Source: Amoebophrya sp. A120
Lineage: Eukaryota > Protista > Dinoflagellata
Direction: 5' to 3'
DNA length: 64,000 nt
Assembly: GCA_905178155.1 (NCBI GenBank)
Contig: CAJINV010000002.1
Span: 1,339,809 to 1,403,808 of the forward strand
Under the pieces are notes generated by a model. The model saw only the letters and a program-made list of their open reading frames with translations, did not search any database and was not told where the DNA came from. The position numbers and the translations under genes were made by a program. Positions 4,689 to 62,600 of the stretch are shown one piece after another (the first letter of the stretch is position 1; each line of letters starts with the position of its first letter).

Positions 4689-7458
4689 TTACAACGACAT
4701 CTCCCCTGTCGAGATTTCTCCCCTCTCGACGTCGGTGAGAGGGGGCCGAGACACCTCTATCGAAAGGAAAAATCCCCCCTCCCCATATCGAAAACGAAAT
4801 TTGTGATGCTGTATTTGAGGTCACAAATCGATTTGTCATGCTAGAAGGCCAAGAGCCGCAGTCGTTGCCTCGTTTGCAGACAATTTGTCATGCTGTTTCC
4901 CACTCTCAGATGCCTCCTCTCATGCTGAAGATGCAAGGCTTCGCCACGCCACCTAGCACTACAGTCCGCATCTTTTCCCGTGTAGCATGACAAAGCTGAT
5001 TTGTGACAACAAATCTGCCTTACAGATTTCCGTTTTGATATGGGGAGGGGGGATTTTTCCTTTTGATAACCTCCGACTCTTCTTCAGGCTCCTGTTCCGA
5101 CTCCTCTTCAGGCTATGCATCGCAAATATCGATCTAGGTTTCTTGGAAGACTGCGAGTTTGACATGCTAATTCTGTAGCGAGCAGAAATCTGTATTGCAG
5201 CAGTGCGAAACGCTGCCGACCCTTTTTCTACGACACGATGAATCTCGGATTTCTCATGCGTGGCTGGCATTGATAAACCTACCTCGCGGAACCTGTAATG
5301 CTCTGCGTGCATTTCGGACTACCTGATTTCTGTTCCAGGACATGCATGGCAGGCAAGTGCACTCTTCCGGACTCAGACATATTTGCATCCACCTGATAGC
5401 AAATGCATGATTTCGGTCGCCCCTGCCGCCGGCGCAGCTGCAGAGACGGAAAAAGAGGACGATGAGCTTGAGGAACCGCCGCCAATACCCAAACCGTTAC
5501 TCAAGTCGCTGTGTCCCCGCTGCCTGTAATGGATCATTGTCAAAAATTTCTTGTTTTGTAAATCAGTTTGTATCAGGTTTTGTATGAGCCCTGCGAACAA
5601 AAAATTATCATTCATGCAATCACTGGCACTCCCACTCCTACCTATTTACACCCAGTCGTCCATAATCCGCATGACAAAAACCATCGTTGTAGTTATTCTT
5701 ATTTACCTGGCCGGAAAGCCGGACTCGTGGGTTTTGTCGAAGGGTTTCCGCGGGGAGGATTTCCGGGAAGAGGAGGCGTGATTCATCCCCTTGTGGTCGA
5801 ACTTCTTGTAGTCCACCGTTTTAATCTGCTTCTGCTTCGCCCCGGCAGCCATCAGACTGGTGTTCAGCAAGATCCGCTCGCACATCTGCGAGATGGGCTT
5901 CAGGTGCTCCTTGAGCGACTCGTCGAACACCTGCTTGTTCTGCTGTGCCAGATCTTGTATGGCTTGCAAATATGCCTGGGTCTGGGAACTTGTGATGCAA
6001 GGGAGGGAATCGGGAGCGCACTGTCATGCACATGCGCTGGCAAGCATGACAAGTTTTTCCATGGTTTTCAGTTGCGTACTCTGCATAAGTAGCAGCGTTT
6101 TTGCATGACAGGCAAGAGGAGCTCAGTGCGGCCACGCAATACAGAGCTCATAGTTATGTCAGACTAGCATGACAAATTTCGCAACCTCCCAGACCCAGAC
6201 ATATTTGCATTCGATATCTTGCATCTTCTGGCTGAACACCTCGGAAAGCAGGTTCGTACTCGTCTCCTGACCCTGGGACAGGTTAGCGACGCCGCGCTCT
6301 AAGTTCGTCACAGTGTTCATGCCGGTCTGCAGCACGTTGCCCAACCGGTGCATCTCGCCCGTCAGGGAAGAGCCAGCCTGCGGTTTTTTCTTTAATATTG
6401 CAGCTGTGATTATTTCTGCATGGTCGTGAAGATACATGAACATTATGAAAAACTTTCCAAAACACCTGAAAGACGAAAGAATGTTGCCATGCATCGAAAA
6501 ATAGTCATAACATAGATACCGGTGCCGCCCCGGCATTAATGCGCATGTATCCCGTATTACCGCGGGACGCCAATTGCGCGGGGTTGTGCGCATAGGTCAC
6601 CGGTGCAGAAGCAGTAACAGTAGTAGTTGTGGTCGAAGGGGTACTAGTCGACGAGGATGTTGGTGCCGCACTAGTCGTGACAACCCGCTGGGAAGTACCA
6701 GATGTAGATGATGGCGTCGTACTAGTGGTCGGAATCGTATTAGATGAAGTCGCGCTCTTTGCGCCTGCACTCGTATAATTACCTGCCAACTGCCTGCTGG
6801 CCTGGTGGATCTGCTGTGCCAACGAGCGATTGTTCCCGGAGGTCTGCGGTCGTTCCACGGCCGGCGCGCTACGGACCACAACTTCCGCTGGCGAAGCAGC
6901 ATCGCCCATCACGGTGTCGCCTTGCGCGTCGGTACTGTTCATCGCATTTTGCTGCTGCTGCTGCTGCTGCTGCACGACGACGCGCGCAGCAGGAGCCACC
7001 GCTCCTGCCGGTGCGGGGGCCGGCGGGGTAACCGCCGGGACGATCAATTTCTTCACTTTCACCACACTTTTCCCCAGCTGCACCACCTCCTTCGAGAACG
7101 GATCATCTCCTTTTTCAACGACGGTCGGCGCCAGTTGCACGGGGTGTCGATCCTGCTGCACCACTGGGGTTTGCGCGGCCCGCGACGAGGCTTGTTGCAC
7201 CAGAGCGACCCTACCGCCAGCCGGCTGATGTACTAGTTGTCCACCCGCGACGAGATTGTTGCCGCCGAACCCGAGGAGATCGACTTGCGCGGGGCTGCGA
7301 GCGGTGGCAGTCCCGTTCGGTCTGGTACTGAAAGTCGGCGCCGCAGTCCGATTTTTGCTGAACGCCCCGTAGAAGCCGAAATTACTGCTGGTTGTGGACG
7401 CTAACGATGACGTCCGGGAGGACCACGGGTTTCCGTAGTTTGGGTTTCCGTTTTGCAT
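4689..7458 (-). CDS. Hypothetical low-complexity protein (Q/T/S-rich N-terminus), about 6 exons
   Basis: ORF 6505-7458 joins ORF 6159-6593 via GT-AG intron 6378-6519. Introner 5958-6216 gives QKMQD|LAQQNK. GT-AG intron 5524-5706 follows, then a degenerate element at 5114-~5398 (junction uncertain). Introner 4758-5068 gives EEESEV|SRPPL, with TAA at 4689. Confidence 0.65.
4758..5068. mobile_element. TIR introner, family E
   Basis: ~45-bp TIR TATC(G/A)AAAGGAAAAATCCCCCCTCCCCATATC. Perfect 5-bp TSD ACCTC at 4753-4757 and 5069-5073. Confidence 0.9.
5114..5398. mobile_element. Degenerate family A introner
   Basis: Left end TATGCATCGCAAATATC and right end CTCAGACATATTTGCA resemble family A TIRs. 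No matching TSD; the right boundary is uncertain. Confidence 0.55.
5958..6216. mobile_element. TIR introner, family A
   Basis: TIR TATnnnnTGCAAATATGYCTGGGTCTGG. TSD TCTTG at 5953-5957 and 6217-6221. Removal restores the frame. Confidence 0.92.
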
Positions 7459-8726: not shown

Positions 8727-11700
8727 TTACAAAGTGTTCATGGCTCGTTCATGCCGGGCGGTGGCCGTGGAGGTGGATCCAGCATCAGTATCACTGGCGG
8801 AAGTAGAAGTCGCAGGTCCGGCAGCTTCTCGGGCAGTAGTACTTGTGGTATTGACGGCATCTGCGGTCGTAGCTGCGTCGGTTGCAGAAGTAGATGATGT
8901 GATCGTCGGGTGATTAGTTTCTTGTTCAGTTTGCGTGCTGCCAGAGTTTGATGTGGTCTGCAGATTTTTCGATTGGGTAGTTGTTACCGTGCTTGTCCGG
9001 ATACTGCAACGACACCAAATGTTTGACGACTGCCGTACGTATTTCATGACAAACCCCACGTCTTTTGGGTGGTAAGGCGGCTTGATAGTCCCCGTTCGTT
9101 CACAGTACTTTTCTTCGTTCACCTTTTCGCACTTCCCCCTGCGGGCGATCCCCGGCTTTTCCAGAAACTCCAGCCGTTCCAACCCCTTCTTCACCAACTT
9201 CAGTCCCAAAACGTTCTGGAAATTTGCTAGCACTTCTGGTCGGACGAAAGAGCTCGCTGCCGGAGAAGTTGTTTCACTTTTGCTGATCTTGTCACCTCCT
9301 TCCGCTCCCTCACTGCTCGCTCGCGGGTACGCGAGGGCAACTCCAGCGTCCTCGTCCAGACGGTATGCGAGGTGCTGCTCCGCAAACCGCTGTACCGCGA
9401 ACAACGCCAGGTTTCTTCCGAGGACTAGGTCTACTTCGGACTTCATTTCGCCGTCATGCGTCTCTCTACTAGCAGCACCAGCAGCCTCCTTCCGGAGGAT
9501 AAAGTGGTTCAAAAACTGTCCAAAGTCGTACAGGATTTTGGAGAAATCAGCCACGACCTGTCCTTCTGCCCGGTGCTCCGCCAGACTCTGCTTGCGGTCG
9601 ATGGCGTTGACCCGCTTCATCAGCGATTTGCACACTGCGAGGTCAAACTGCTTTAGATTTTCCTCGTTGAGAAACTCCTGCATCACGAATTCCAGGAGTT
9701 GTGCCTCAATCGGCGGAAAAACGGCAATCAGGCTCTGCCAGTCCGCCACTTTCGCAAACTCCCCGAACATATCAAGTGCAAAAATGTCTGGGTCTGGAAA
9801 AGTGATGTAAACTTGTCATGCAGATTTTCGATCGCCTATGAGGTCTGGAATGCGGGACTTAGCATGACAGACTCTGCGAGGTCTCTGCCAAACAATGCCA
9901 TACCTATCCTGCATGAGAAACTCCATTCTAACTTGCTCAAAAGTGGACAGCTTTTGGTAATCTTCACGTAACACAGATTTTTACATGATTCAGATTTACC
10001 ATGACAAGTTGCCCTTGCCACCATCCAGACCCAGACATTTTTGCATTTGATAGAACATCCGCTGGATCGCCCGCCAGGCGGTGTCCGGCGTTTTGCGCTC
10101 GGAGTACCAGCGGTAGAAAACGGCCCAGAGTTGCGGCCCGAGCGTGGACAGAAGAAGATCTTCCTTCCGCAGGAGGCGCAAATGCTGCTGTAGCTCTTCG
10201 ACCGTGTAGGTCAGCTTCCCGTGGGGCGTCGTGGTCAAAACCTGCAGTGTCTTCCCGAGCAACTCGAACAAGCAGGTCAGGAAAATTTTCTGCTGCGGCA
10301 GGAGCAAGTAGAAATTCTTGTCCAGCAACGTTGTTGGTGGTTTTTCGAATGGTGTTCCGGATGATCCAGAGGACGAGGATCCCGGCCCGGCTGTTATTTC
10401 TGCGGGTTGTTCTTGGTTGTTGAAAAAATCCACCAATGTCTTGCAGACAAATGCGATCACACGGTGTGCCGGCTTGTTGACTTCTGCATTTTCCTGCTGC
10501 AAGAGCAGCGGCAGAAGCATCAAGATACAACGCGTTGGCGCTCCGGGATCGAGAGTAGAGTTTATTTCCTGATCTTGCTCCGCACCTACAACATTGCAGG
10601 CGCTTGTCAAACAGTTGAGAAGAAACTCCAATACGTTCGTGTGCTGATCAAAATCCGCCAGGATCTGCACGGCCCTCTTTTTTGCTGTCATCTCACTGCA
10701 GAAGTAGTACAGGTTATTCGCTGATTCCAAAACCCGCTCGACCAGCCGCAAAACTGGCTCGTGGGACCAGGAGGTAGTGGTAGTTTCTTCGAAGATGGAT
10801 GAAGTGCTAGCAGTACGATCTGCCCCTTCTGCCGTAGTGCTACTCGTCCTCGTCCTTGTCGTTTCACTTCCAGCAACTCGCAAGAGCGGCTTCAGCCAGG
10901 TGTAAAAGTGGTCTTTCACAAAGGCTGCGAACTCCTCTCCCCTGGAATCGTAGTCGAACTCGTGGCTGGTATACTTTGCAATCTCCTCGTGCACCCGCAC
11001 GAACGTCGGTCGCAGCCGTTTTGGTTCGCGAGTTATCTTTCCGCCGTTCACCATTACCAGACTTCTGATGCGCCCGAACAACAGGACGAGAACGACGTCG
11101 AGCACCCCGGTTTTCCCCAGCAACTCCAATGTGATGCTCTGCAGAATCGCTGCCCCGTAGGCCTTCCGGTAGAACTCGAGGTAACAAAACCCTTCTTCTG
11201 CGGTGCCACGGAGGATAAACTGCAACACCCCCATCAAACCCGAGACCGTCAATACTCCGCCGTATTGGAGGTCCGCAATTGTATGCAATGCAAAAGCATC
11301 GTACTCGTATAAATTGCATCACAAATTAGCCCAGCATTACAAATTGAATTTGTAATGCTGATTTACCTTGAGAAGGCCTAGGACATTTGTAATGCATAAA
11401 TGCAATTTTTACTACGAGTACGATACTTTTGCAGAGGATAAATTGTGATGCTCTGCAACTCGCCAACCAACAGCTCGATCAACTCGGCGTAGAAGACATT
11501 GGGCCAGCACTCGATGAGGATCTCCGCTGCGTTTTTGCTTCGTCTCCACACCAGGTTCTGCGACACGCCCTCCATTTCGTCGTAATACCGCCAAGGCAGG
11601 ACCAGGTAACGGGGGCTGTTGTTCCCCGGAGTTTTGCTTTCCACTGCTCCCTGTGGACGAACGCGTTTTTTCGCGTTCGGCTCTTCCTTCTCATCCCAAA

Positions 11701-22859: not shown

Positions 22860-23121
22860 TATGCATTGCAAATATGTCTGGGTCTGGACAGTTGTGATGC
22901 GAATCTGTGAAAAGTGGGCGCACTGCAATACGAGCCAAGCATGACAAGTTTTTGAGCTGCGATGTTTATTTCCGCGGCATGGCGAACTGCGTTTTTGCAT
23001 GACAGGCAAGAGGCCTTGCTCCTGCTCATCCTCATGCATCACAGATTCAACACTCATGCCAGACAAGCATGACAAACTTGCATTCTTCGTCTTCCAGACC
23101 CAGACATATTTGCAACGCATA
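22860..23121. mobile_element. TIR introner, family A
   Basis: TIR TATGC(A/G)TTGCAAATATGTCTGGGTCTGGA. TSD ACTCC at 22855-22859 and 23122-23126. Removal gives the minus-strand reading ETLLDEIIAMIVPAEE|LQRDKDGYFIEG. Confidence 0.93.
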
Positions 23122-34100: not shown

Positions 34101-34420
34101 TTAGACCTACAGTCCAGATGAAAATATGAGGTTTCGTAATGCTGAGTGCTGTAGTGCGAAAGAATAAGAAACGGTTCGTTCTCAGCTTTAGGTTTAGCCT
34201 GCAGATTGTGACATAAAGTCGTCATCTTCTTCTTCAAAAAAAACCCAGTTTTTTAGATTTGCTCTTGCCCCGATTCTCGCACCACAACACCCGATGATTT
34301 TTGTTTTTCTGCGAGAGCCTCCTCGTTTTTCGTGCGACAAGGTGTTTATCCTTATCGGCTCTTGTTTCTTCAGTTCCTCTAAAATCAAAATTCTTCGAAA
34401 ATATCATCTTGAATCAATCC

Positions 34421-40400: not shown

Positions 40401-43400
40401 AATGAAAAAACACTTGGCTAATGGTGATTTCATGTAGAAGCGAGTACAACTTTGCATCACAACCACAAATGAAAAGCATCTTTATTCATTCACAAAAACG
40501 ATTTACAACTCCTACCACGTCCTTCTTCTTTGCCTTTTTCCCGCCTTCCTGCAGTGCGACCGCTTTTCCGTATTCCTCGCCGCGCAGCTCTTCGTAATTC
40601 TCCGTCGTCAGCATGTTTTCATTCGAGTACACGTCCCAGCAAATTTCGAACGGCGAAATCGGCTTGAAAAAGTTCAAGTAAATGTCGTTGCTGTTGTGGT
40701 GTCCCCCCATACCGCCCATGTTATTTCCCCCGTCCACCGCGCCGTCCGCTTCCCCCCAATTGTTCCGGTAATTGTAGTAATCCGGGGCCTCGTTGTAAAA
40801 TTCGTCCACCCAATTGTTGCTCGCCGTGTTCGCCTGCTCCTTGGACGCCGTTACGGCAGAAGCCGGATTCGGGCCGAGTCCGGGGGCCGCCGCGGTGGTC
40901 GGGGCGTTACCGAGGGGAATCACCGCGTTTTGCTTGTTCTCATTGTACCGGTCCTCGTACTGAAAAGTCGCTTCGACTAACTTGGCATGGAATTTAAACC
41001 TGCCGGACCCGAACATGTCGATCAATTGCGCGCCGAGCGGCAGAGTCTGGATGTCCGAAAGCTTGCCCGTCTCCATCTGGCAAATGGTCGTGAGCTGTGG
41101 AAAAATCCCATTGTCCCGAGCAGAATTCCTGATTTGGAGGAGTTAAACAATCAATAAATGGTGGTCATGTGATATGTCTGCATGACAGATTCACATAGTC
41201 AATCAGAAGCTGCACGACATCATGATGGACACCGTAACGTTCTTGTACACAATACTTGCCAGAAGTTCACGCGTGTTCAGCATCACAGATCCAAAAACCA
41301 AAGACACAAAGACATCCACATTCAATACTGTGCATAGTATCCGCCCATTGCTCCGGCGTATAAATCCCCGCCAACCCCGCCGGCCCCGGCCGCATCCCCT
41401 TCTGCAGCCATGACACTCGGGTCGCCCGCGGCCGGGGGGTAGCAATCTTCGTCTGGGGTGTTGACTTGGGAGTCCGTTTTAAACTCGATGTACAGCTTTT
41501 TCCAGTCGGGCTCCAGGTAGATGATAATGTCCCGCGGGTTGCAACTCATCATCTCGGCGAAGGTTTGCTGTAAATCCTCTTTCATCGTCTCCCGGCTCTC
41601 AATGTCCTTCGGAATCTCCATCACCATCTGAACCGCCCGGCGCGGGTCTATATCAAATGCAAATATGTCTGGGTCTGGAAGGTTCTTAGACTTGTGGTGC
41701 ACGTTTTGCATGAGCCATGATGTCTGTGATGCATGCCCTAGCATCACAGATGTTTTGAGGGCATCTTGATGCCCATTCCGCATGACAAATGCCCTTTCCG
41801 CGTAGCAAAAATCGCGTTCCCTTTGCTGCTCATGCAATGCAGATTTTTTTGGAATTCAAATGCAGCATCACAAGGTGCATTCTTCCAGACCCAGACATTT
41901 TTGCATTTGCTAGTCCAACCCCTTAAACAACATGTCCTGCAGCAACTGCTCTTTCGCGTTCAAATTTTCCGGCTGGCTGTGCGGCCCGGGCTTCTTCCTT
42001 TTTGGGTTTTCCGTGTCCCGGATCTTCGTGTTGCCGATCAGTAAGTTCGGCGAGAACGACGCGAGCAGAAGGGACTTTAAAATGTGTGATGGGGTGTTGA
42101 ACAGTTCCGAGGGCTTGGCTTCCTCGTAGTAGTACGGACTGAGAAGGCAAATCAATTTATTAATGTCGTCATGCAGCTGCGAATCGCGGTGCACGAACTT
42201 CTTGAACCGGGTGGCCGTGTCCAGCACGTTCATACACAAATGTACGCACCGCTTCGGCACCACAGCGTAATGGCGGGAAAAGTTTTGGGAGAATTTCGTG
42301 AAGCTCGCGCGGTGGTTTTCCTGCACGTACCCCCTTCTGTGGGAGAACTGCTTCTGCTTGAAGAGGTAAAAATCCGCCATCCACTGGACGAAAAGATTCC
42401 GGAGCATCAGCGGTTCCGAGTACTGGCCCGCGTCGAAGTGCTTCCGGGATAAGTAGGACCGTTTAATCGCCTGCGCGTACTCCGTTTGGTCCTTGATCAC
42501 CAAATGCGTCGGGAGCGTGAAAGGGTCTTGCGTCGATAAAGCAGAGGCGATGACAATCGCATCACCTATACACCCGAACAAAGCCCCGTACACCACCAGA
42601 CGGCAGAGGTAGATGTCCAGGGGGAGTGTGAGCATGAGATGCCCGAGGAGGGACAGCTCCGCCTCCTCGTTGTTCGAGGTCAACGCGCCCATCTCGACGA
42701 GAGTAGCAATCGACCGTTCCAGCGCGCTCGTATCTGGCGGCTGCGCCGTTAACCGGAGCAGCTCCCGGGGCTTCAGCTTCCGTGCCACCGGGATCCCGCT
42801 GGTCGGGTTGTTCGGGTCGTCCGGGATGGGGAAGGGGGGGAGTTTATTCTGGGTAAAAACGCTCCCACCAGATAGTCAAGTTGAATAATCTGCAACACAA
42901 GTCTCCAGGCTTTGGAAGTTCTGCATGACAAGTTTCCGTCTGTAGTATAGTCCTGTTTGGAAAGGACAGGCGCATCACAAAGACCTCTCCTCATCCTGTT
43001 TACAGCATTACAAATATCAGAAACCGATTACAGATTCAATTTCTCTATATGTAAATGCGCATCACAGATATTTCTGTAGATGCAATTCTGCATGGCAACT
43101 ACGGGGTGGAACCGTTTTTACATAGCATAGAGTTTCGCGGCCAGGAATTTCACGTTGACGTACAACTTCTCTAAAGGTGCGGTCTCCATCTCGGGTGCGT
43201 CAAATTCCGGCAGTTGCTCGTAGAACCCCCGTGTGTACAGCCTGATGTTCGTCCCGGCGAAGACACGCCCTGTGCGTCCCATGCGCTGCTTCACCGACGC
43301 CTGCGAGACCCAGGTGGTGGACAAACAGCTCATGTGCCGCCGGGAATCGTAAATGAGCTGGCGGCGCAACCCGAAGTCAATGACGAACCGGATATTTGGG

Positions 43401-46400
43401 ATCGTCAGCGAGGATTCGGCAATGTTACTGGCGAGAATCACGTGGCAACTGTTGCTGTCCGGGGGGGAGTATGCAGTGCAAAAGTTGTGTCAGCTAGTAA
43501 TAGCACAAAATGCAATACAAATTTTATTTTCGAGTTGTTGGTGAAGAAAAGTCGAATTGCAATTTGTAATGCTGGGAGGTCACTTATAGACGAAAGATCT
43601 CTGCTCATGCAGGATTTCAATGCCCCGGAGCACGATCCAACTTTCGCACTGGATAGGGAAAAAACAGCGGACTCCTGCTCGTCTTTCGGAATCAAGGAGT
43701 GCAGGACGAAAATGCGGTACCTGATGAAGAAGAATTTGTCATGCTAAACAGAAGTGTAGAAGAAATTTTTCATGCGTTCGCGTTGCAAGCTTTTTGAAAC
43801 AACCCAGTTGAGTATGAGTGCTCCGCGCGTAATATGTAGCTCATCTTCCAATGCAGGAAAATGGTATGGTGTCTAGTACGCAACGACTAGTACGACAGGA
43901 GTTTAAGTATCCAAAACAAAACAAACGCTATCGTGTCTAAAATCAGGAGTGTTTGATCATACCGCATCCCCGCGTTATTGTGATTGCCTCCGCCAATTTG
44001 TTCCAATGGGAGTAATTGGTCGTGCAACTCCGTAATTTCGCCTATACCCGGCAGAAACACCAAAATCCCCTCGCCGCCCTTGGCCGACTGCATGATAATC
44101 TCCTTCACAACCAACTCAAAATCCTTCGTGATCGTGGCGTGCGGCATTCTCTGCCCCCGGTGGTTGCTGAACTTGCCGAATTTTCCGAACTTGTTCAAAT
44201 TCACGCCCTGGGTCGCGTGGTTCGTCGCGTTCCCGCTCCCGGCATTCATCGCGGAAGTTTCTGCCTCGTCTTCCGTATCGCTGTTTTGGTCGAGCAGAGA
44301 CGATTCGGGTTGCTGTTGATTATTATTCCCATACCCCAGAGAGTTGTTCAACTGCGCCTGCAGGTTCGCCGAATAAGCGCTGAGCTGCTGGTTCGGATCC
44401 TGAGCGGCTGCTGCGGTGTTTTGGAGGTAATTGTTGTTGTTTCCAGCACCTCCCCCACCGCCCATAGACCGGAAGTCCTTGAACTGGTAAGTCCCGTTCC
44501 TAATCGCGTCTGTCGACTCCGGCGAGAACGTGTACCGGTCGTGCAGTTCGTCCAAGTGTACCTCCTCCACGTCAAACCGCTTGGCCCCGACCTGAATCGG
44601 GTTCACGCGTCTTCTGCCCCCGCAGAAGTAGCGGCCGAACAGGTCGCCCTGCAAGGTGGCGGACATGATAACTAACCGGAACTGCGCGGATTGCATTTGT
44701 AATTTCACGACCAGATTCACCAGGTCCGCGTCAATGTCGCGCTCGTGCACTTCGTCCAGGACGATGTGCGAGTAGTCGTTGAGCCGCTCTGGGTTGTTCA
44801 CGACTACCTGTAATAAATACCCTGTGGTGACGAAGACAATCTGGGTGTGCTTCTTCACCGCCGTGTCTCCGCTGATTTGGTACCCGACGGAGTTCCCGAG
44901 CTCCTCCCCCAGTACGGACGCCACCCGCTTCGCTAAAGAAATGCACGCAATCCGCCTGGGCTGCGTGACCAGCACTTTAAGCCGCGGGGGGACCGACATC
45001 ATGGCGTGCTTGTCCACCGTGTCGTTGATGGCCTCGTATCAAATGTAAAAATGTCTGGGTCTGGAAGAATGCAACTTGTGATGCTGCATTTGGATTCCAA
45101 AAAAATCTGTATTGCATTAGTACCAAAGGAAATGCAATTCTTGCTACGCTGAGAAGGCATCTGTCATGCGGAATACGCATCAAGAAGCCCTCAAAAAATC
45201 TGTATTGCTAGGGTATGCATCACACCAGACATCATGACTCATGCAAAACGTGCATGACAAGTCTCAGAATCTTCCAGATCCAGACATTTTTGCATTTGAT
45301 ACCTCGATGGGGTTCGCGATGCCCGGCGTGCCGGCGACTGCGGACCCAAACGTGCCGGAAGAGGAATGCATCAACGGGTCTAAATTGTCCGGGTCGGCGC
45401 TGTATGGATTGTAAAAGTGTCTGGGTCTGGAAGAATCCAACTTGTCATGGTAAATCTGAAGCATGCAAAAATCTGTGTTGCATGAGTGCCGAAAGCTGTC
45501 CACTTTTGACCAAGTTGGAGGGGAGTTTCTCATGCAGGATAGGCATGGCAGAGACCTCGCAGAGTCTGTCATGCTAAGTCCCGCATTCCAGACTTCGCGG
45601 GTCATGGAAAATCTGCATGACAAGTTTGAACTTTTCCAGACCCAGACACTTTTACATTTGATACGCTGGCGGAGTTGGGGTCCGCGGAATTCGTGTGGGC
45701 CAGCCCGGTCTGCTCTTCGTACTGGGAGAGCAACCGCGGGTTATGCATCAGTCCGGCGTCCCACATCTCCTTCAGATACACCGGGACCCGGGTGGACTTA
45801 CCGCAACCTGTCGTGTGGATTTTTTGATTCGGTTCATGTGGTTGACGGCATGCTGTGCACATTGACAATCTATTTGCGGTGAAGACCTACACCTTCACTA
45901 TCAATACCGCATAGCAAGTTTTTATACCTGTATCCCCCTGAATGCAGGTGATTCGGTGCCTTAAAAAATGGCGAACGATGCGTCTTTTGAACGCGTCGAT
46001 CGGCAGCGCCTCCCCCTCCGGAATGTGAAAATTGATTGCCGTGCCCGTTGGCGGTTTTTTCGAACCCTTCTTGCTCCCCTTGCCGCCGCCCTTTGTTGTG
46101 TTGTTGTTTTTACCGCCCGTTGCATGCGTCGGTCCCGTTCCGGAAGTAGTTTGGTCTGCTTTGCTCGCACTTGTACCACTGGTCTCCTTATTGTTGGTTG
46201 CGTTATTTGTCGCAGCAGCCGCTCCACCTCCAGTAGTTGTGCTGCTACTCGCCGCACCTGAGCTGGCACCACTTACAGGCCCCGAAGCACTGGTGCTCGT
46301 ACCGGTACCACTACTACTCGCCGCTGCCGCGGCCTGCTGTGCGGCAACCGCCGCGGCGGCAGGGCCAGAGGGGTTCATGGCCAAGCCTTGCGCGGTCGCC

Positions 46401-46603
46401 CACGCAGCCGCCTCAGAAGCCCACTGGTTATACACAGGGTCGTCCGTGGTGGATGTTGTTCCGGCAGGTGCAGCGGCACTACTACTTGATGTCCACCCCG
46501 CTGCTCCGCCACCGGCCCCGGCTTTGTTGGCCTTGCCCGAGGAGGCGGTCGTGGAAGCTGCTGCTCCTGCGCCACCGCCAGCAGCCTCGCCATACCAATC
46601 CAT
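34421..46603 (-). CDS. DEAH-box RNA helicase (Spindle-E/TDRD9-like) with WG/GW-rich tail, WW domain and PAM2-like motif; ~3020 aa, 17 exons
   Basis: Motifs GDTG|CGKST, TQPRR, DEVHER, MSAT, FLPG, LHS, SNIAESSLTIP, VIDF, QRMGRTGR and an HA2 region (LGHLMLTLPLD). Seven GT-AG introns (45808-45927, 43721-43962, 41095-41194, 40325-40515, 39722-39862, 38953-39088, 34640-34822), eight TIR introners and one intron near 41250-41322. Summed exons are 9063 nt, divisible by 3. WW domain: PIPEGWKAAQDPKTGRTYYWNVRTKETQWKKP. Confidence 0.88.
36066..36221. mobile_element. TIR introner, family B
   Basis: TATGCATT(A/G)CAAAAGTATCG TIR. TSD CAGAG/CGGAT, 2 mismatches. Joins QNTTS|ASSDNW. Confidence 0.88.
37407..37714. 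mobile_element. TIR introner, family C
   Basis: ~43-bp TIR TATGGAAGCGTCA-G-TTGAAATCG-CAAAGTTGAAATAGTTTG. TSD CAGTC at 37402-37406 and 37715-37719. Joins KGRL|IKEID. Confidence 0.95.
37926..38096. mobile_element. TIR introner, family B
   Basis: Family B TIRs. TSD TCGAT/TCGAA. Joins AMSLS|NQGN. Confidence 0.9.
41651..41912. mobile_element. TIR introner, family A
   Basis: Family A TIRs. TSD GTCTA/GTCCA. Joins FKGLD|PRRAV. Confidence 0.92.
42845..43129. mobile_element. TIR introner, family D
   Basis: TIR TAT(T/G)CTnnGTAAAAACG(C/G)T(C/T)CCACCnnnTAGT. TSD GAGTT at 42840-42844 and 43130-43134. Joins AAKL|PPFP. Confidence 0.88.
43470..43655. mobile_element. TIR introner, family B-like
   Basis: TIR TAT(G/C)CAGTGC(A/G)AAAGTTG. 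TSD GGGAG/GGGAA. Joins SAVFS|PPDSNSCHVILASN inside the helicase core. Confidence 0.88.
45037..45301. mobile_element. TIR introner, family A
   Basis: Family A TIRs. TSD CCTCG at 45032-45036 and 45302-45306. The interior is a reverse-complement homologue of 41651-41912. Confidence 0.95.
45403..45663. mobile_element. TIR introner, family A
   Basis: Family A TIRs. TSD CGCTG at 45398-45402 and 45664-45668. The interior is a reverse-complement homologue of 9770-10052. Confidence 0.95.
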
Positions 46604-48343: not shown

Positions 48344-51300
48344 TCAGTTAAACTCGTCCCCACCCCTAAGCCAGGAGAGAATTGTTTCCGTTTCCAATTG
48401 CAGCGGGTTTGGATGACCGATTTCTTTCCTCGTGGCAGCCAGAAGTGGCACAAGACTGGGATCATCTTCTCGTCGCGGCCCCCCCTTTTTTGTGTTTTTT
48501 CGCCGGGGGTGTTGAGGTGCATGGCACGAAGATCCTGGTTCTCTTGGAGCGGGTAGAAAAGCCCGATGTTCATCTCCGTGCGGGGCGAGGGACAAGACGT
48601 GACAAGAACTACGCGCGTATGGAAAAGGGGCGCAAGGAGAGGTAGATTCACAACTTCGTGCACCTCCATAAAAATGCACTGGCGCAGGGTCGTCGTGGGC
48701 AGCTTCTGGTTGCGAGCGTGGTCGGCGACAGGATGGCGCGACCCGCAGGTGATCTACTTCCGGGGAACTCCTGTTACGCACGACCTGGGCCTCCTCTAGT
48801 TGTACTGCAGCCGGACCGGTGGAAGCGCCACGTAGTTCTTGCCGCCGGGCACCGCCCCATCTCCGATCTACTTCACGAAGTGCACAAGAACCATTTCCTA
48901 CTTCGAAGCTGCCCCAATGAATGCTGGACTCGGTGAGGAGGAAAATCACCTCCGTGTTCTCATTCAGTGTCACCTTCACAAACCGCTTTTGCAGAGGAAC
49001 ACGCTTGATCTTCTTCTGTGGAGGTGCCACACGTCTCCTGTTGGTCTTCGACTTCGGGGAAGATGATGAACTATTTTTCCACTGTCTTTTTCTGTTCTTT
49101 CGTGCTAGTTTCTCAGGTGTAGCAGATTCTGGTCTTTCTTTCATTTGTTCTGTTCGACTTCTAGCACTTGCACTCCTCCTTCTACTGCTGCGGGATCGCG
49201 ATCGCGAAGTGGATTTGATCGTTCTTGCGCCAGCTGCACTGCTTGCAGTGGTCCCATCAGCGTTTATTTTCATTTTGTGCAAGTCCTGATAATCCTCGAC
49301 GTCGTCCTCCGAAGCACGGCGTGGCCCTGATAAGAACGCGACATCTTGTTCCGATGTGTAGTCCACTTCCGAGAAGACTGAAGGACGAGAGGAGTCTGCG
49401 TCGGAGCAGCTTGAGTTGGTTTTCTCGTTTTGTTGTAGTTCCACCCCTGACGATGAGCGGCCTTTCCTTCGGCGGATTTTGCTGTTTTTCACCCCAGCGA
49501 CTTCTACTTCGCGGAAGAAGTACTGCTTGAACCTGGTACTATTTTCTGCGCTTTTCTGTCGCTCTCTATCTCTTTTCAGCCGCCGCTGGCGCGACGACCA
49601 GGCGGGACATAGTACTTCATCTACAGGTTCTTCTTGATCTCGTTCGGTTCGTTGGTCTAGTGCATCTTCTTGGCGACCCATGCCAGAAAGCTCCTCGTCC
49701 CCGGAATCCATGGAGAAACTGGCGGCGTCATCAGCTGATGGAGATGATTCTCCACAACTATCTTGTTGAGAGATACTGTCTTCAGGCACCACAACCTCTT
49801 CCAGCCCCTCGTCCGAAAGGAATTCGAAATCCCCTTCATCTAGTTCCTGCGGGAAGAGACGCTGCCTATGCAACGCAAAAGCATCGCAAGTTAGTAGTCC
49901 TCGGACTGATTGCAGATATGCATGCAGCTCTTCTCATCTACTCAGTCGTTCCTCAGGTAAATCATTCAACATGACAAATTGCATTTGTCACCACGCTAAG
50001 CAAATTTGCGATGCCAAAAAATGCCAGTACTTTAGTTAACGACGTTTTTGCACTGCATACTGCCATCCCCGCACCCATTTCGTGACGGTCGCAAGGGTCA
50101 TTTGGCACGTGATCACCAGGAGCTGGAGCTTTTCCGGTGCCCGCTTTTTATTCAGCAGAGCCGTGAGGAAGTACTCCGTCAGGGCGCCATCCGGGCCCAT
50201 CATTTCCTCGATGCTATCCCAGTGATCTTCTATCATCACCCGGTGTTCTCTGAACTTTCCACTGTGGTCGACCGCTTCGTAGTTTTTACCAGCACTATTT
50301 CTACTTCCCTGTCTTTCCGCATCGTCTGCGATTCGCTCTAGCGTTTCCTGCAGCTCCCGGACCCTTGCGGCCACCCGCGCCTGCTGCTGCTGTTGAGTAG
50401 CAGGAGGTGTAATTTTTCCCCCGGCGACGTTGGACTCCTCTTCGGCACGTTGCTCGTATTTGGCTAGCTCCGCGAGAAAATTCGACCTGTAGGGGTCTCC
50501 TACAATGCCGGGGGCAGCCGCATCCGGAGTTGCATGCTGTTCTTGTGCCCTCCCGGAGCCGTCGTTCTTGACCACCACATCTACCTTCGGGATTAGCAGG
50601 CCCGCAAGCCAGGCTACGTACATCAACTCGTGCTGTATGATGTTGGTCCGTCCGCGGAAGCTGAGGTTAGAAGCAGTGCCCATCTCCATCTCGTCGTCAT
50701 CCGCGTGGAGTGCTATGGGTCGTTCGTCGTCTCGCGGCTCTCCTGTTCTTGTCCTAGCAGCGTCCGCCTCCGGAAGCAGAAGATCGCGGTCATCCCGCCT
50801 TTCATGTTGTTCCAGAGCAAAATCGTCCTCTGAACAAGAATCTGCAGGAGCTCCTGTGGAGAAAAAGTCCATAAACGTCAGCAGCAAGCGCGCCTTCAAT
50901 TCTTGCGCTCCTTCCGCATGATCTTCCCGTTCTTCGGGGGTCATGCAGGTCGACGCGGTTGCTGTTGCAGCAGTAGTACAACCCTGAGAGAACAACTCCT
51001 GGTTGTTCTGACCGCGACTAGAGACGACAGGACTAGCGGAACTTGAACTACTTGCCGCTGGAGTAGTTGTCAATGGAGTTGTTGTGCTTGATTGCTGTAC
51101 TGCACTTCTTGCTGCTTCTCTTCCAGTGTCCTTGTCTACTACTTCCAGCGAAGAACTATGAGCTCCATCGCTGCTCCCTCGCCCTCCTTCCTTCACGTAG
51201 TGCAACGCGAAGTTGTCCGGGTGGTACTCCACCAACTTCAACCGCTTCGCCGCCATATCCCGCTCACTGACCGGATTTCCGGAGTCCGCGAACAGCTTTT

Positions 51301-55140: not shown

Positions 55141-56654
55141 GCTTTGGCAGTGTTTTAATGGCTGGGGATTTCATACAGGACTAAGAACGTTCGCCGCGCA
55201 CCATCTAGATCGGTGGCCTTCTCCTCGTTTCGTCGGTGATATATCGCCGCATTGGAAATCAAGGGCAACGATCGTAGGCGTCATCCTGCGTCAAAGATCT
55301 TTGACACGGACATAAAGCCAGTTGACAAACGAACGCACGCTTTGTGGCAAGCGACTGATCCTTCCGAACAAGGCTTCTCATCCGAGAAAGCCGAAAGCTG
55401 TCGATAATTCATCCTATATCGCCACGTGGGCGTTCCCGTTCGTAGTACTTCTATGAAGTGGTGAATCTGGATTTTTTTTGCTTTTTTTCTTTTTTTAGTG
55501 CAAAAATGGTAGAGCTTCAAGATGAATTTTCAGCGTCGCGACAAGAAGTTGTAGTTTTGGCATTAATCTTGTCCGTACTTCTGTAGCTGCAGGAGCTGCC
55601 CCTATTTGTTCCATCTTTTCCTTTTTAACAACAACAGAACCTACTTCCTGAGGTCGTGTCTACTCCGCCCCTTAAGTTGTAATTCCTGTCTATATGAAAA
55701 AAGGAGGAGCCTAGTTGTGTAAGGATTGTTGCGTGGCCAACTACAATGGACCAATGTACTGCTTCACAAGCAGAAGTGACATTCGGGGAGAAGTGTCTTC
55801 ACGCTGCAGAAAGAATCTTTCACCCCTCTACCAATAGTACTAGTACACGACCACCGTCAAACCGTGGGCGCCCCCATCGACCCCGAGCCCTCATTTGCCT
55901 GTGCAAGTTAAAAAATCGAGGAAGGTTAGCCGTGACGTCACCAGCAATAGCAAAGCTATAGTAGTAGAAGTTGAGCGAAGTGCTGCATCAGCTTGAAAAT
56001 CTTACCATTTCTGCAATTTTTGATTTATTTTAGAGTGCTGTGTGTAGTTGGAGAGATGAAGTCGGTCGCTTTTTGTTTTTCTGTTTTTCTGCGCTTGTCT
56101 TGTATAAAAGCTGTATTGTAAATCTGTAATTTCCGTAATATTCCGTGTAGTTTTAGCTTTCTTGATTGAGGTAGTACGATAATTTGTTTTCGCAAAATTA
56201 AAATTTGTTGGTGGAGAAAAAAACATTCGTAAAAATGATGTCGCTAGGTTCTTTTTTGAAAACGCAAGAAGATTTCGTGTTCTTTGCTGGATGAAATTCA
56301 AATTTAAATGTCGTGTGTAATCGCAATACATTTTACGTGAGAATGAGCTATGAGTACTATGTAGGTTTTGTCAACAACATTCTTCGCTACGTAGTCTTTG
56401 TCTTTCTGTCAGATGAAAGAATATACTTTTTTGCCTATAAAAATACAGTCGCGTTGCCGCTTGTTTAGGATACTGTAGATACAGATTTTTGTCGTGTTCC
56501 AGCTATGGCGGAAAAGAAGAAAAAGTTTATGCGACTTTCATATTTTTGTCATCTTTTAGCTTTACCTTTATCTTTTTAATACGTGAAAAAAATCATCGTC
56601 AACGTCGAAGCTGCCTGGAAGTTGTACCATAGTTCTAGTTTCCATTCATCTCCT

Positions 56655-59600
56655 TCAGGGTAAATAGTCCTTAAACATTCCTCCATAAGCCTTTTTGTAA
56701 TCGAACTCAAACACCCGGCACGCGCGGATCGGGATTTCATGATAGGGTATGTCGTCCGGCTGTTCCAAGGTGAAACCCAAATTCTTCCAGAAATTGCACA
56801 CCGAATTGACTTCCTTCTTTTCCTCAGACGCCGCACACACGGTGACAATCCGGACGTGCTTCGGCTTCCCCAATTCCCGCATCTGTCGCTGGTAAATCGC
56901 CTCCCGACGCTGGTATTCATCGGTCATCAGTTTTCGCACGAAGTTGAAGCGGCGGCGGGGGAGGTCCGACTCGTCGTCAGAATCGACATTCTCGGAGCAA
57001 TGAGTCGTGTCTTTTTTGTTCACTTTCTTGTTATTGACATCCAGCCCGGTTCTACTAGCACTACTACCTCCACCAGCGGGAGCTGCCCCGCTCAGGTTGC
57101 TGTTCTTTCCCGCTGTCGCGCGGTTGTGGTTCTTACTGTTTTCTTGCTCCTGCTCAAGGACGCAGTCGCGTCGCGGCCGCTTGCGGACCGGCTGGAGAGC
57201 GTCCTCATCTTCGTCATCGTTCTTCTGTGGTTGTACTTGTTGCGGTCGTGGATTTTCCGTGCTGTTCTTTTGGACGGTCTTCGTCGTATTCTTGGTGGTA
57301 TTTCCATCAGACAGTAGGTCCACTTGATGCCCAGTACCAAGAGCGCTTTTCAGCTGGTTGTCCTTGTTGTCCTGAACATCCTTATTTTTACCACCGTTGT
57401 CGGCTACGGCTGCATCCCGCTGCTTGTTGTCTCCACCTCCACCACCTTCTGCCGACGATAGTTGTACCGTCATCGCCGCGGCTGCTTTACTCTTTTCCTG
57501 TCGCCTCTTTTCCTTCATTTTCTTCAGTTTTTCCCCACGCTCAAATTCCATCACCCTGCGGTTAATCTCATATGCTGGGAGATTTTGGTCGATCAAGTGC
57601 GAAATGGAATGCAACCAGGTCTGGGTCTAGATGAGTGCCGACGTTTGTCATGGTGTTTTTCTTTCACGCAGACGGTCTGGCATGCAAGCGCTCGCATTAC
57701 AGGTTCTGGAAAGCATGTCGCGTTTCTATGCCCAACCCGCATGACAAATGTCCACCTCTTTCGGTGGCAAGAAGAAGAGATGAGCAACTTCATATTTTAT
57801 ATTCATTGCTCTCCATGCATGACAAACTTTTGTGTGATCTGGAATGCGCATTGCAAGTTAGCACTCATTCTTCCAGACCCAGACATACTTGCAACGCATA
57901 TGCGACTCGAGGTTCAGCCGTTTCACCAACATCTCCACCAATTTCGAGCCCGCATTGGAACTCCGGTAGTGGAACTTGGTAACGAAGAAGCAGATCATGA
58001 AGATCCGCTGCGCTGTATGCATTACAAAAGTACCGCACGTAGTAAAAATTGCATGACAAATCAATGTCCTTAGCGGTAGGAATGAAAGTTGTAATGCGGA
58101 TTTACCTTAAGAAAAATATTTGTAATGCATGACCGTAGTTGCTACGAGCACGATACTTTTGCGGTGCGTACTCAGGATCCTTCGTCGATTTCGTGTCGAT
58201 GCACACCGCCGCGGTTTGCACCCGGTCGGAGTTGTTTTATGCATTGCAAATATGTTTGGGTCCGGAGACTTGTGATGCAAATCTACGAATTGTGAACACC
58301 CTACAATATGCAGCCCAGCATGACAAGTTTTTGCGCTGCTGTGTGTTTCGTCTTTCGCATGACAAACTGCGTTTTTGCATGACAGGCAAGAGGCCCTTTC
58401 CTGCTCATGCATCACAGATTTGAGAGTCATGCAAGACAAGCATGACAAACTTGCACTCTTCCAGACCGAGACCCGGACACATTTGCATGTGATATGTTTT
58501 GTTTCAGCGCGATTAGGGAAAATTCGTCACGAAAATTCCCCTGTTGCCGGATAAATTGGTTGCAGATCAGATCGTAAGCCTGCTTCAGCAGACTGAGTCC
58601 GAAATTCGCCTGCATGGCTAACAGTTGTTCCATGGTGTACAGCTGTGAATCCAACACGTGCGAGATCCGCGCCGTCGGCTTCACCTTCTTCTGCCCCAAC
58701 TGCTCCTTCAACTGCTCCGTCGGTTGTTCCCAAAAAGCGTTCCTGTTTTGCGCGTGATTTCTCTTGCCGAAGGAGAGTTGTAAATGATTCTTCGCGTGAA
58801 AGGCACTGGCATCCAACATTGGCTTTTTTTCCAGGAGCACGGCCTGGTCGTTTGCGTGGTTCAGCGTTTGATTCATTTTCGCAGCTTCGAGAAGCAGATT
58901 CTGCTGTTGCCGCTCGGTGGTAGGAACTACAATTGGGTTAAGATTTTGCTTTTCCTTTTCACTTTTATCCGTAGTAGTACCAGTTGTACTAGATGTTGAG
59001 GCAGAACTATGGACAACCGCCGGCTCTTCTAACTTGTAGATTTTTTGCCGCAGAAAGTCCTGCGTGATGTGGTACTCCTGTTGCACGACATTCTCGTAGT
59101 TTTCCGCAATAAATTGATGCAGTTCCACGCTAGAACATCCTCCAATAATTTTCCCCCCCGAGCTAGAAAGCGTCGTGTTTCCGGAATGCAAGCCCGGAGC
59201 GAAGAACACGTCGTGGTTTTCTTGCTGAAGGAAAATTTTTCTAGCCTGGGAAGCTGAACAAGAAGACGAAGAAGCCACTTGATTTATTTCCGGAGTGCCG
59301 CTCTTTTTCTTGTTCATCTCAGACGGCGCGAGGACGTTTTGTTTCTGTTTCCCGTGTTCATCATTGTTCTGCTGCTTCCTCATCTTGTTCAGCATTCCGA
59401 AAGATGATGATGTTGAAATGAAAGAAGATGAAACTCCCGACACCTCCACAGGACCACGACGAGACACCTGGTTAGTATTTCTCGAGTTCGCCAGCGTCTG
59501 CGGATTCACTTTCACGAGCTGAAACTCGCCGTTTTCATCCTCAATGAATTGCTCAACCTTCTCGGTGGTCGATGAAGAGCTGTCGTGGGGTGTTGCTTTC

Positions 59601-62600
59601 TGAAGAGATGGCGCAGCTGCGGCGGCAGGAGCTTTGTTGTTGATGCAATCGGATGTTGTATTTGGGCCGTTCTTGGTTACGGTCGGGGTAGTTCTGGTGA
59701 TACCTACTTCCGGCTTCTTCTCAGGCGCCGGAAAAACTTCATTTGTTTCATTTTCATCTGCATTTTCTTCATTCTTTTTGACCTCCTTCATCTCTTTCGC
59801 CGCAACACCCTTCAGTACCTCTTCGCCGTTGCCGGAAGCCGTCGAAGATTCTTGAGATCGTTATGAAATGCAAAAGCATCGTACTAGTATAAATCGCATG
59901 ACAAATTTCCTCAGCATGAGAAATGAAATTTGTAATGCAGATTTGCCTTGGGAGCAAGATTTGTAATGCAAGATTCGCATTTATACGAGTACGATACTTT
60001 TGCACAGGATAATCGTTCCAACTTCGCAATAAACTCCGCCATGTCGGCTCGATCCTTGGTCGTATCGGCCTGGAACCAGATGGCGTTATCCTGTGCAAAA
60101 GTATCGTACTCGTAAAAAAAACGCATGACAAATTTCCTCAGCATGAAAAATAAAATTTGTAATGCGGATTTCCCTTAACGCCTAGATTTGTAATGCATGA
60201 ATGCAATTGCTACGAGTACGATACTTTGGCACAGGATAGGCGTTCCCGTGCTGCAAAATCCCCGCGTAGTGCCGGTTCTCCAAAAACGGAAACTGCGTGT
60301 CGCGTTTCTTCACGACCCCACCGGAATATTCTGTGCAAAAGTATCGTACTCGTAGTAATCGCATTTATGCATTACAAATCCCTTTTTCAAGGTGAAACAG
60401 CATTACAAATTTGATTTGTAGTGCTGGGCTAATTATTTGTAATGCAATTTATACTAGTACGATGCTTTTGCATTGCATACGGAATGCAGGTCAACAAAAA
60501 AAGACTCGTCGGTGAAATTCGGGGATGAAACTTTCTGTTTCAATTCTTCGGAGAGTATGTCGTTTACCCCGGGTTTGTTCTTGTTTTTCAACGTGTTATT
60601 CATCGGTTGATCGACTACCCCCGGTAGTTGCTTATGCTGTTGACTCCCAGATGACAGGAATAGACTTGTCATCTTCTGCGCACCGGTAGAACAAGTACTT
60701 CCACTTGCGGCTGCAACAGCCAAGGCCGTGTTTGTTGTTGAAGTCGCAGGTTGTCCCGTGATTGCTGGTAGGCCAAAGTTTTCCAGAAACAGCGATCCTG
60801 GAGGGTGGAGTGCTCTGTTGTAGTCCAGAATTTCATTTTTCAACAGCAAATATGTCTGGGTCTGGAAACTTGCAATGCTGCGTTGGGAATGGTGAATGCT
60901 CTGTGTAATGCACAGCCAAGCATGAGAAATATCTGCGCTTCTTTGTGTTCTTGCGTTTTTCCCATGACAAGCTGCGTTTTTGCATGACAGGCAAAGGGTT
61001 CTCTTCTTGGACATCACGCATCACAAACTTTTTGGTCGTGCCAGACCAGCATGGCAAATCGTGCATTCTTCCAGACCCAGACATTCTTGCATTTGATACG
61101 GGCACCGCCATCGCCAAATTGGTCTTCTTCTCGGCCTTTGCGTGCTTTTCCTGTTCCAGCTGGTGCTGCTTTTCCGCGTTGCTCTGCGCGGTAGCGGAAA
61201 TGAGGTATGGATGTGTCAGGATTTAAATCGACAAAGTTGAAATAATAACTTGCAATGCATAAAACGGATGAAAGTTGTATTAACCTAACCCAGTTTCCAA
61301 CTGGCGCATGACAAATTTGGGTAGACAAAAAAAAACAGTCTGTCATGCTGTTTGGGTAAGGAAGGCGCCTTTTGTCATGCTACTTTAGCAGCTCAGTTTC
61401 TACTTACCCCTCAACAGGCTTACAATCTGCCTCACTTGCCTCCTCTGCAGGAGAGGCACTCTGTGGGCTGCATTTTATGCATGACAAACTATTACAACTT
61501 TGACGATTTCAATCCCTCCTGCTTGGTATCTTTATCCGCCTCGACGTCCAGAATTGCTGGTAGGCCGAAGTTTTCCAGAAACAGCGATCCTGGAGGGTGG
61601 AGTGCTCTGTTGTAGTCCAGAATTTCATTTTTCAACAGCAAATATGTCTGGGTCTGGAAACTTGCAATGCTGCGTTGGGAATGGTGAATGCTCTGTGTAA
61701 TGCACAGCCAAGCATGAGAAATATCTGCGCTTCTTTGTGTTCTTGCGTTTTTCCCATGACAAGCTGCGTTTTTGCATGACAGGCAAAGGGTTCTCTTCTT
61801 GGACATCACGCATCACAAACTTTTTGGTCGTGCCAGACCAGCATGGCAAATCGTGCATTCTTCCAGACCCAGACATTCTTGCATTTGATACGGGCACCGC
61901 CATCGCCAAATTGGTCTTCTTCTCGGCCTTTGCGTGCTTTTCCTGTTCCAGCTGGTGCTGCTTTTCCGCGTTGCTCTGCGCGGTAGCGGAAATGAGGTAT
62001 GGATGTGTCAGGATTTAAATCGACAAAGTTGAAATAATAACTTGCAATGCATAAAACGGATGAAAGTTGTATTAACCTAACCCAGTTTCCAACTGGCGCA
62101 TGACAAATTTGGGTAGACAAAAAAAAACAGTCTGTCATGCTGTTTGGGTAAGGAAGGCGCCTTTTGTCATGCTACTTTAGCAGCTCAGTTTCTACTTACC
62201 CCTCAACAGGCTTACAATCTGCCTCACTTGCCTCCTCTGCAGGAGAGGCACTCTGTGGGCTGCATTTTATGCATGACAAACTATTACAACTTTGACGATT
62301 TCAATCCCTCCTGCTTGGTATCTTTATCCGCCTCGACGTCCAGAATTGCTGGTAGGCCGAAGTTTTCCAGAAACAGCGATCCTGGAGGGTGGAGTGCTCT
62401 GTTCTTGTATCTAGCACGGGCGGTCGCTCCGCGACCGCCGGAGAGGTATGGAGGAGACAAGGACGCGATGGGCCCGATTTCATACTAGGAAGGTTGCATT
62501 CCTCGCGGGGAAGGGGCAGGAGGCGATACGCGTACCCCAAGCGGGTTTGTCCCTGGGCGCCGGCGACCACTAGAGCCTCACGCCCGACGCCCCCTGGCCC

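Follow-up and report, generated by a model that had tools for sequence, protein, structure and literature searches.

Introners in a 64,000-nucleotide (nt) stretch of the genome of Amoebophrya sp. A120 (contig CAJINV010000002.1, positions 1,339,809 to 1,403,808 of the forward strand; hereafter the window) are lost from transcript contigs together with five adjoining nucleotides, and wherever the two copies of the flanking 5-bp direct repeat differ and the junction is visible, the upstream copy in the sense of transcription is kept in the messenger RNA (mRNA). At two of these elements the repeat copies agree at only three of five positions, yet removal is exact, which favours cuts set at a fixed offset from the element's hairpin over excision guided by the repeat, these two being the strong cases. 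A motif, GCAT(G/C/T)ACA, spaced at 31-33 nt, is shared by 14 element families. The A120 introners themselves, their TAT ends, their repeats of 3-5 nt and one family with a 5-bp repeat and TA/TA ends are known already; the retained upstream copy with its fixed offset and the shared motif at 31-33 nt are new. Our preferred explanation, given a probability of about 0.5, is that the elements are short non-coding DNA transposons whose cuts are set by distance from the hairpin, likely by an altered spliceosome, and that one integrase-like transposase likely moves them.

General features of the elements

Window elements were detected by a terminus-free inverted-repeat scan and a homology search. Twenty-one introners of 150-585 bp each were found between 4758 and 60479, every one within minus-strand genes (all long genes examined in the window lie on that strand), and each is named below by its first coordinate.

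4758..5068, minus strand, introner of family A, 311 bp long and flanked by an exact 5-bp repeat, one register permitting GT-AG
5958..6216, minus strand, family B introner, exact 5-bp repeat, frame open with element plus 5 nt removed
9770..10052, minus strand, family B introner, exact 5-bp repeat, 446 + 345 open codons with element plus 5 nt removed
11282..11440, minus strand, family C introner, exact 5-bp repeat, 501 + 426 open codons with element plus 5 nt removed
22860..23121, minus strand, family B introner, exact 5-bp repeat
29690..30274, minus strand, element with family C ends, 585 bp, repeat 4/5, transcript-5' end TAC, open reading frame continuity
36066..36221, minus strand, family C introner, repeat 3/5, mRNA skips 36061-36221 with upstream copy retained (runs X1 and X4)
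37407..37714, minus strand, family D introner, exact repeat, removal by record arithmetic (206/206 letters jointly with 37926)
37926..38096, minus strand, family C introner with a 4/5 repeat, the upstream copy of which is retained
41651..41912, minus strand, family B introner whose transcript-5' end reads TAG, with a 4/5 repeat, the upstream copy of which is retained
42845..43129, minus strand, family E introner, exact repeat, removal by record arithmetic
43470..43655, minus strand, family C-like introner, repeat 4/5, record arithmetic only, splits helicase VFS|PP
45037..45301, minus strand, family B introner flanked by an exact repeat, one register permitting GT-AG
45403..45663, minus strand, family B introner, exact repeat, record arithmetic only
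49867..50059, minus strand, family C-like introner, exact repeat, 49862-50059 absent from the mRNA (run X4), GC-AG possible
57603..57900, minus strand, family B-like introner, altered transcript-3' end, mRNA skips 303 nt
58016..58170, minus strand, family C introner, repeat 3/5, mRNA skips 160 nt, 1 nt overlap
58238..58494, minus strand, family B introner, mRNA skips 262 nt
59862..60011, minus strand, family C introner, mRNA skips 155 nt
60087..60238, minus strand, family C introner, mRNA skips 157 nt
60327..60479, minus strand, family C introner, mRNA skips 158 nt

An earlier reading of the window from its letters alone (the sequence-only reading) had described 21 elements with TAT ends and a 5-bp flanking repeat, and although its exact set may differ from the 21 counted here, both traits were recovered. 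Read inward, the 42 termini are TAT in 38, TAC in two, TAG in one (41651) and AAT in one (57603), which fits the two altered terminal bases it had mentioned. The flanking 5-bp repeat is exact in 15 elements, matches at 4/5 positions in four and at 3/5 in two, and when repeat lengths of 2-8 were compared across the 21 elements none besides 5 fitted consistently. An A stands at end positions 11, 12 and 13 in 38/42, 40/42 and 40/42 termini, with family D deviating at these positions. The terminus-free scan gave 37 inverted-repeat matches, some of them non-elements, whose longest flanking repeat is 5 bp, compared with 1-2 in each of five shuffles. GT-AG ends are attainable in any register in two elements (4758 and 45037) and GC-AG in one (49867), so that 19/21 lack GT-AG, as had been said of most. 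Folding of the hairpins end to end gave z values from -1.8 to -12.6, and insertion occurs in both orientations (45037 is opposite to 41651, both family B). With terminal inverted repeats, a constant duplication, many copies and no coding capacity, the elements have the features of MITEs (miniature inverted-repeat transposable elements). Bins covering elements in run X5 reach a depth of up to 197,000 against about 45 in the flanks, a depth that does not equal copy number. The 585-bp length of the element at 29690..30274 is inflated by 92-bp and 13-bp tandem repeats at 29839-30157.

The rule had been proposed for the whole of 4758..62320 and holds for the 21 elements up to 60479; its far end, 62320, belongs to a one-ended copy without a 5-bp repeat. 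Four such one-ended copies depart from the rule, and they lie in an apparent 792-bp tandem duplication (60761-62344, one difference), each copy of which carries two one-ended introners; the RNA contig ends at 60616.

60838..61098, minus strand, one-ended family B copy without 5-bp repeat, second copy at +792, spanned by no RNA contig
61207..61528, minus strand, one-ended family D copy without 5-bp repeat, second copy at 61999-62320, spanned by no RNA contig

Removal from transcripts

Contigs of runs X1 and X4 were aligned to 35001-51000, and those of runs X1-X4 to 52001-61552. The transcript evidence consists of assembled complementary DNA (cDNA) contigs from two samples of one study and covers 15 of the 21 elements; the RNA nature of X1-X4 is a presumed label, none of these runs being on record as RNA. 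The joints expected by the sequence-only reading were found throughout, the element plus 5 nt being missing from spliced contigs at 15/15 covered elements, at eight by a directly visible joint (36066, 49867, 57603, 58016, 58238, 59862, 60087 and 60327) and at seven by record arithmetic, including 43470 and 45403, neither flank of which is among the aligned pieces. At 36066 the record positions are contiguous in both X1 and X4. An X1 contig of 11,622 nt carries the helicase gene described below in eight aligned pieces without differences, and a model removing each element plus 5 nt and six GT-AG introns reproduces its record positions at 7/7 gaps (9552/9552 letters). In run X4 six joints of 303, 160, 262, 155, 157 and 158 nt each equal an element plus 5 nt. 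Since the same contigs lack the six GT-AG introns, they represent spliced RNA and not empty alleles. Contigs of run X5, unlike those of X1 and X4, extend into elements, and only 3 reads of X8, a run of raw RNA, fell on 16 kb.

34823..46603, minus strand, host gene encoding a DEAH helicase that has a WW domain, 2939 aa after removal of eight introners and six GT-AG introns

The open frame of this gene reaches 2939 codons with all introns removed, against a longest frame of 1040 aa with only the GT-AG introns removed, and the joined frame contains DEAD, HA2 and WW domains (Pfam). Homologues align without gaps across the 43470 and 41651 junctions, and the nearest named homologue is a Toxoplasma helicase. 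The protein has long low-complexity extensions and its WW domain is C-terminal. Insertion inside conserved helicase motifs, as claimed earlier, applies to the element at 43470, which splits the conserved VFS|PP segment ahead of motif V; the Walker A motif is interrupted by a GT-AG intron (45808..45927) and not by an introner. Frame-perfect removal, claimed for every element, stands for 15/21 by transcript contigs and for four more by open reading frame continuity (5958, 9770, 11282 and 29690), and the frame check at 4758 and 22860 gave no clear preference.

A hairpin flanked by direct repeats is the textbook setting for reverse-transcriptase template-switch artefacts, and the junctions might be such artefacts or reflect removal at the DNA level. 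The setting favours template switching, and all RNA evidence comes from cDNA contigs of runs whose RNA status is presumed. This explanation is nonetheless very improbable, because the helicase frame exists only after removal, homologues align across the junctions, two junctions have a repeat overlap of only 1 nt, and the X5 contigs retain the elements.

Position of the cuts

Perfect repeats hide the register of the cut, so that only elements with imperfect repeats are informative. In all four elements whose copies differ and whose junction can be seen (36066, 37926, 41651 and 58016) the upstream copy is kept in the mRNA. At 36066 and 58016, where the copies agree at 3/5 positions, only 1 nt can slide, which places the 5' cut either on the first base of the element or on the base preceding it, and the 3' cut 5 or 4 bases past its end. 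The 3' cut of these two elements falls in host-derived sequence, and at 58016 an AG within the downstream repeat copy is unused. Altered terminal bases at either end (41651 and 57603) leave removal undisturbed. No splice dinucleotide is present at the 3' cut, and no preferred acceptor was found in any register among 130 frame-oriented elements from a second assembly.

Occurrence in a second assembly

A scan with the family B pattern gave 149 loci totalling 809 kb, every one in record set JACKZZ01 (seven redundant loci were dropped), a choice by which family B is over-represented. Element ends were fixed by an internal anchor for 251 elements of four families. The length of the target-site duplication (TSD), which the sequence-only reading expected to be concentrated at 5 bp, proved to be so, an exact flanking repeat of 5 bp being present in 196/251 elements, of 4 bp in two and of 6 bp in one. 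Repeat identity per position stands at 0.91-0.92 within the five positions and at 0.19-0.31 beyond them, and the duplicated target shows no sequence preference in the 251 elements. A 6-bp duplication, considered because eight window elements can slide six bases, was rejected, the identity at the sixth position (0.23-0.27) being at background. A scan of the loci that was free of terminus assumptions gave 318 5-bp matches starting with TA (311 of them TAT), the next commonest start having 3. GT-AG or GC-AG is attainable in any register in 6/130 frame-oriented elements, a G precedes TAT in 41/130, close to its base frequency, and family B elements lie in the two orientations relative to frame in 27 and 26 cases. 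A noisy frame test of 323 locus elements placed the best frame at +5 in 146, at +6 in 42 and at +4 in 27, with 35 ties and 73 below threshold.

In the sequence-only reading the join is directed by the pair of repeat copies, with the result that removal takes out the element and one duplication of whatever length. It draws support from the second assembly, where after end correction by at most 2 bases 243/251 elements match at 3/5 positions or more, 199 of them exactly, from the position beside the 5' cut, which seldom differs, and from a 9-bp Mutator-like element described below, which requires +3, +6 or +9 for frame. The exact removal at 36066 and 58016, at 3/5 identity and 1 nt overlap, weakens it, as does the even distribution of mismatches over the other four repeat positions (4.2% per base; the TAT ends have 1.8%), and we consider it rather improbable.

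Internal motif and mobilisation

Clustering of the locus elements gave 14 multi-copy families. The earlier description of the families as unrelated applies to their interiors, which share no sequence once the ends and the motif are masked, except for two weak matches, and fails for the ends and the phased motif, which are common to them. The motif GCAT(G/C/T)ACA occurs in nearly every copy (162/165, 51/51, 32/35, 18/19 and 17/18 by family), at a density of 11.9/kb inside elements and 0.25/kb outside, and on both strands without bias (184 sense, 221 antisense). Same-strand pairs lie 31-33 nt apart in 9/14 families, and additional maxima stand near 64, 93 and 124; seven of the 14 family representatives carry a 31-33-nt pair, against a null mean of 1.0, a count reached in 0/5000 random placements. 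Spacers between paired motifs are unrelated, and an old tandem repeat as the source of the 31-nt spacing was rejected at a spacer identity of 0.22-0.46. A spacing of 31-33 nt equals three helical turns, which suggests a site for a DNA-binding protein. Subterminal transposase sites in both orientations are a feature of Ac/Ds and En/Spm. The motif was rejected as a branch point, having neither strand bias nor a fixed distance: its last sense copy lies 40-59 nt from the 3' cut in 61/130 elements, depending on family, and 21/130 have no sense-strand copy. It was likewise rejected as a general donor signal, there being no donor enrichment around 106 motifs outside elements; a role in splicing may still exist.

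The TAY..RTA ends and the IS3EU-type partner proposed earlier were not upheld. Termini in the loci are TAT in 470/502 and TAC in only 5/502, and membership of IS3EU/GingerRoot fails on duplication length, because a 6-bp duplication is expected and 1/251 elements has one; an integrase-like relative stays plausible. A single mobiliser shared by all families is better supported by the common end consensus and the phased internal motif, which strengthen the earlier proposal of one transposase; elements of other types exist in the second assembly. No transposase was found among 19 window open reading frames scanned with Pfam, in agreement with the sequence-only reading, Rfam gave no match on the window at E up to 1, and viral contigs scanned twice with family B and C end patterns gave none. 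The family D element at L019 505-1608 (1104 bp, 5-bp repeat) holds a 238-codon frame without a Pfam match.

Three elements show that the TAT/5-bp rule is dominant and not universal. At L060 15307-16034 lies a 728-bp Mutator-like GG..CC element with a 9-bp duplication (8/9) and GT at its second base; a family E copy (L066 10095-10374) has an 8-bp repeat, with frame kept at +5 or +8; and a 523-bp TAT-ended element (L015 1610-2132) has an 8-bp duplication, lacks the motif and is nested in a family B introner, for which reason it was rejected as an intron. In the 728 bp of the 9-bp element the motif occurs once.

These exceptions bear on the possibility that the uniformity is a filter and not a pedigree, several transposases being active and only TAT-ended, motif-bearing elements with a 5-bp (or 5+3n) duplication, spliced in frame, surviving in exons. 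In that case the motif would be a splicing signal and may replace U1. Consistent with it, the only in-exon family E exception has an 8-bp repeat and keeps frame, the TAT-ended 8-bp motif-less element lies nested within another introner, and five of the six GT-AG introns carry the motif, four times at 32-85 nt from the donor. The lack of strand bias, the fit of the 31-33-nt spacing to DNA phasing, and the absence of donor enrichment upstream of the 106 outside motifs, with 0.25/kb outside elements, argue against it. Such a filter concerns mobilisation and can be compatible with the offset rule; it is possible, at well under even odds.

Seven GCAT(G/C/T)AC matches, all on a single strand, lie in a tandem array at 13500-20600 (units of 1.1-1.8 kb, 131-bp subrepeats, a 100-N gap, no Rfam match), and a predicted GA-AG intron at 23172-23332, with a dinoflagellate-type donor, contains two copies of the motif at a distance of 32 nt. 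Between genes, GC-rich tracts that resemble one another in character lie at 780-1250, 1850-2200, 2950-3400, 24900-25300, 26100-26800, 31500-32500, 54000-55100 and 62400-63250.

GT-AG introns

38953..39088, minus strand, GT-AG intron resembling family B, G|TAT donor, 5-mer repeat 4/5
45808..45927, minus strand, GT-AG intron in Walker A, G|TAT donor, exact 5-mer repeat, no inverted repeat remaining

The intron at 38953..39088 scores 18.9 bits against the family B profile (best of 200 shuffles, 2.6) and is likely an eroded introner. G|TAT donors occur in four of the six GT-AG introns (these two, 43721-43962 and 41129-41328). From the profile match and the two NNAGG-type repeats with a G|TAT donor it follows that some GT-AG introns are likely eroded introners, and the 5-mer repeats retained at both places suggest conversion of introners to canonical introns. 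Across the six RNA-confirmed GT-AG introns, seven motifs were seen in five introns against 0.14 in shuffles, and four of these sit 32-85 nt from the donor.

Proposed mechanism

In the preferred explanation, short non-coding TAT..ATA DNA transposons would duplicate any 5-base target; the 5' cut would fall on the hairpin's first base or on the base preceding it, and the 3' cut would follow the hairpin by 5 (or 4) bases, the removal machinery measuring distance from the stem and reading no sequence. The catalyst would be the host's U1-less spliceosome. A protein, in the simplest case the shared transposase, would bind the motif at sites phased by three turns of DNA, and one integrase-like transposase would move all families. 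Where the duplicated target reads NNAGG the element would yield a GT-AG intron, the hairpin of which may then erode.

The same fixed offset could also be produced by a non-spliceosomal nuclease and ligase recognising the hairpin, a route suspected in the nonconventional introns of euglenids. The strong end-to-end stems and the failure of every register to show a donor, an acceptor or a branch signal agree with this, as does a published survey in which U1 went undetected (PMC7789003); in euglenid introns, moreover, the last paired base is reported at -6, which leaves five free 3' bases as here (PMC11282704). The same survey reports the remaining spliceosome as present (PMC7789003), and one introner-derived intron is now GT-AG, suggesting a continuum, so that we regard this alternative as a tentative one, distinctly less probable than an altered spliceosome.

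Several observations weigh against the preferred explanation. The offset rule depends on two strongly informative junctions, seen in contigs, which drop rare isoforms. The repeat position adjoining the 5' cut accounts for no more than 5 of the 58 mismatches (P about 0.016; counted by hand in all 41 imperfect elements of the second assembly and six window elements), a hint that some repeat identity matters. No branch point was found at a fixed distance in the 130 oriented elements, and the spliceosome is a candidate catalyst. GT-AG introns that have lost both folding and mobility still carry the motif, a persistence that is hard to account for if it were a transposase site and nothing else. The L060 GG..CC element lies in a long open frame that removal of element plus 5 nt breaks, +3, +6 or +9 being needed. 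At 49867, the one such case among 21 folds, the terminal pairs are absent from the best structure. No transposase was found in long TAT..ATA elements, the Pfam scan having covered the 19 window open reading frames and that of the 1104-bp element. A speculative variant, which we think improbable, would have a protein that binds the phased motif and the hairpin mark the element, cut at the stem base and five past it, and replace the missing U1, the signal serving GT-AG introns as well; any insertion of this transposon lineage would then be born as a perfect intron, with no splice-site sequence read.

Comparison with known systems

More than 60% of introns in Amoebophrya genomes are reported as non-canonical, with the excision mechanism open since 2021 (PMC7789003). 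Farhat et al. 2021 reported spliceosome parts except U1, found no transposase in A120 and ruled out general mobilisation by transposase (PMC7789003). The A120 introners described there resemble the present elements in their TAT + 7 variable + AAA ends, MITE-like hairpins, direct repeats of 3-5 nt (5 bp in the legend of Fig. S19), RNA-supported non-canonical junctions and lack of a transposase (PMC7789003). That report describes splice sites as variable relative to the hairpin and repeats as variable in length and position, whereas here the repeat is uniformly 5 bp and the cut fixed within 1 nt (PMC7789003); the phased internal motif is here common to the families, and the terms 'subterminal', 'branch point' and 'periodic' do not occur in its main text (PMC7789003). 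Gozashti et al. 2025 list A120 family 38 (808 bp, Ginger, 5-bp TSD, TA/TA ends, integrase-like open reading frames) and fam19 with 5 bp determined by hand, while most other A120 rows examined are 'Unknown' with automatic TSDs of 2-6 bp, some being called non-LTR (long terminal repeat) (PMC12130899).

IS3EU/GingerRoot elements are described with TA..TA ends and no target preference, as here, and their integrase-like transposase would suit family 38; their duplications are given as 6 bp (GingerRoot 72/77), in contrast to the 5 bp and rare TAC ends found here (PMC10045372, PMC12730594, PMC6839031). Euglenid nonconventional introns, as described, share an end-pairing stem, junction repeats, the lack of GT-AG and a likely MITE origin, but their CAG/CTG at +4..6/-8..-6 is not matched by the TAT..ATA ends; they also have a pyrimidine|purine junction bias and leave as circles (PMC11282704). 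The introners of Aureococcus and Micromonas and the non-canonical introns of Fritillaria are likewise reported as transposon-derived with a constant terminal inverted repeat and duplication; those accounts give them canonical or conserved splice dinucleotides, whereas the 3' cut here has no sequence. Amoebophrya is not mentioned in the preprint of Roy et al. 2023. In the open literature searched, figures and subscription papers aside, no statement of a uniform 5-bp rule, a fixed cut or a phased motif was found, and the string GCATGAC appeared with Amoebophrya only as part of a primer.

Conclusions

The variable splice sites of the published account would give way to a fixed geometry, and the shared phased motif would offer a bait for the mobilising or marking protein, contrary to the published view that no transposase is involved. 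Introns that require no particular target sequence would account for the genome's tolerance of tens of thousands of insertions in exons.

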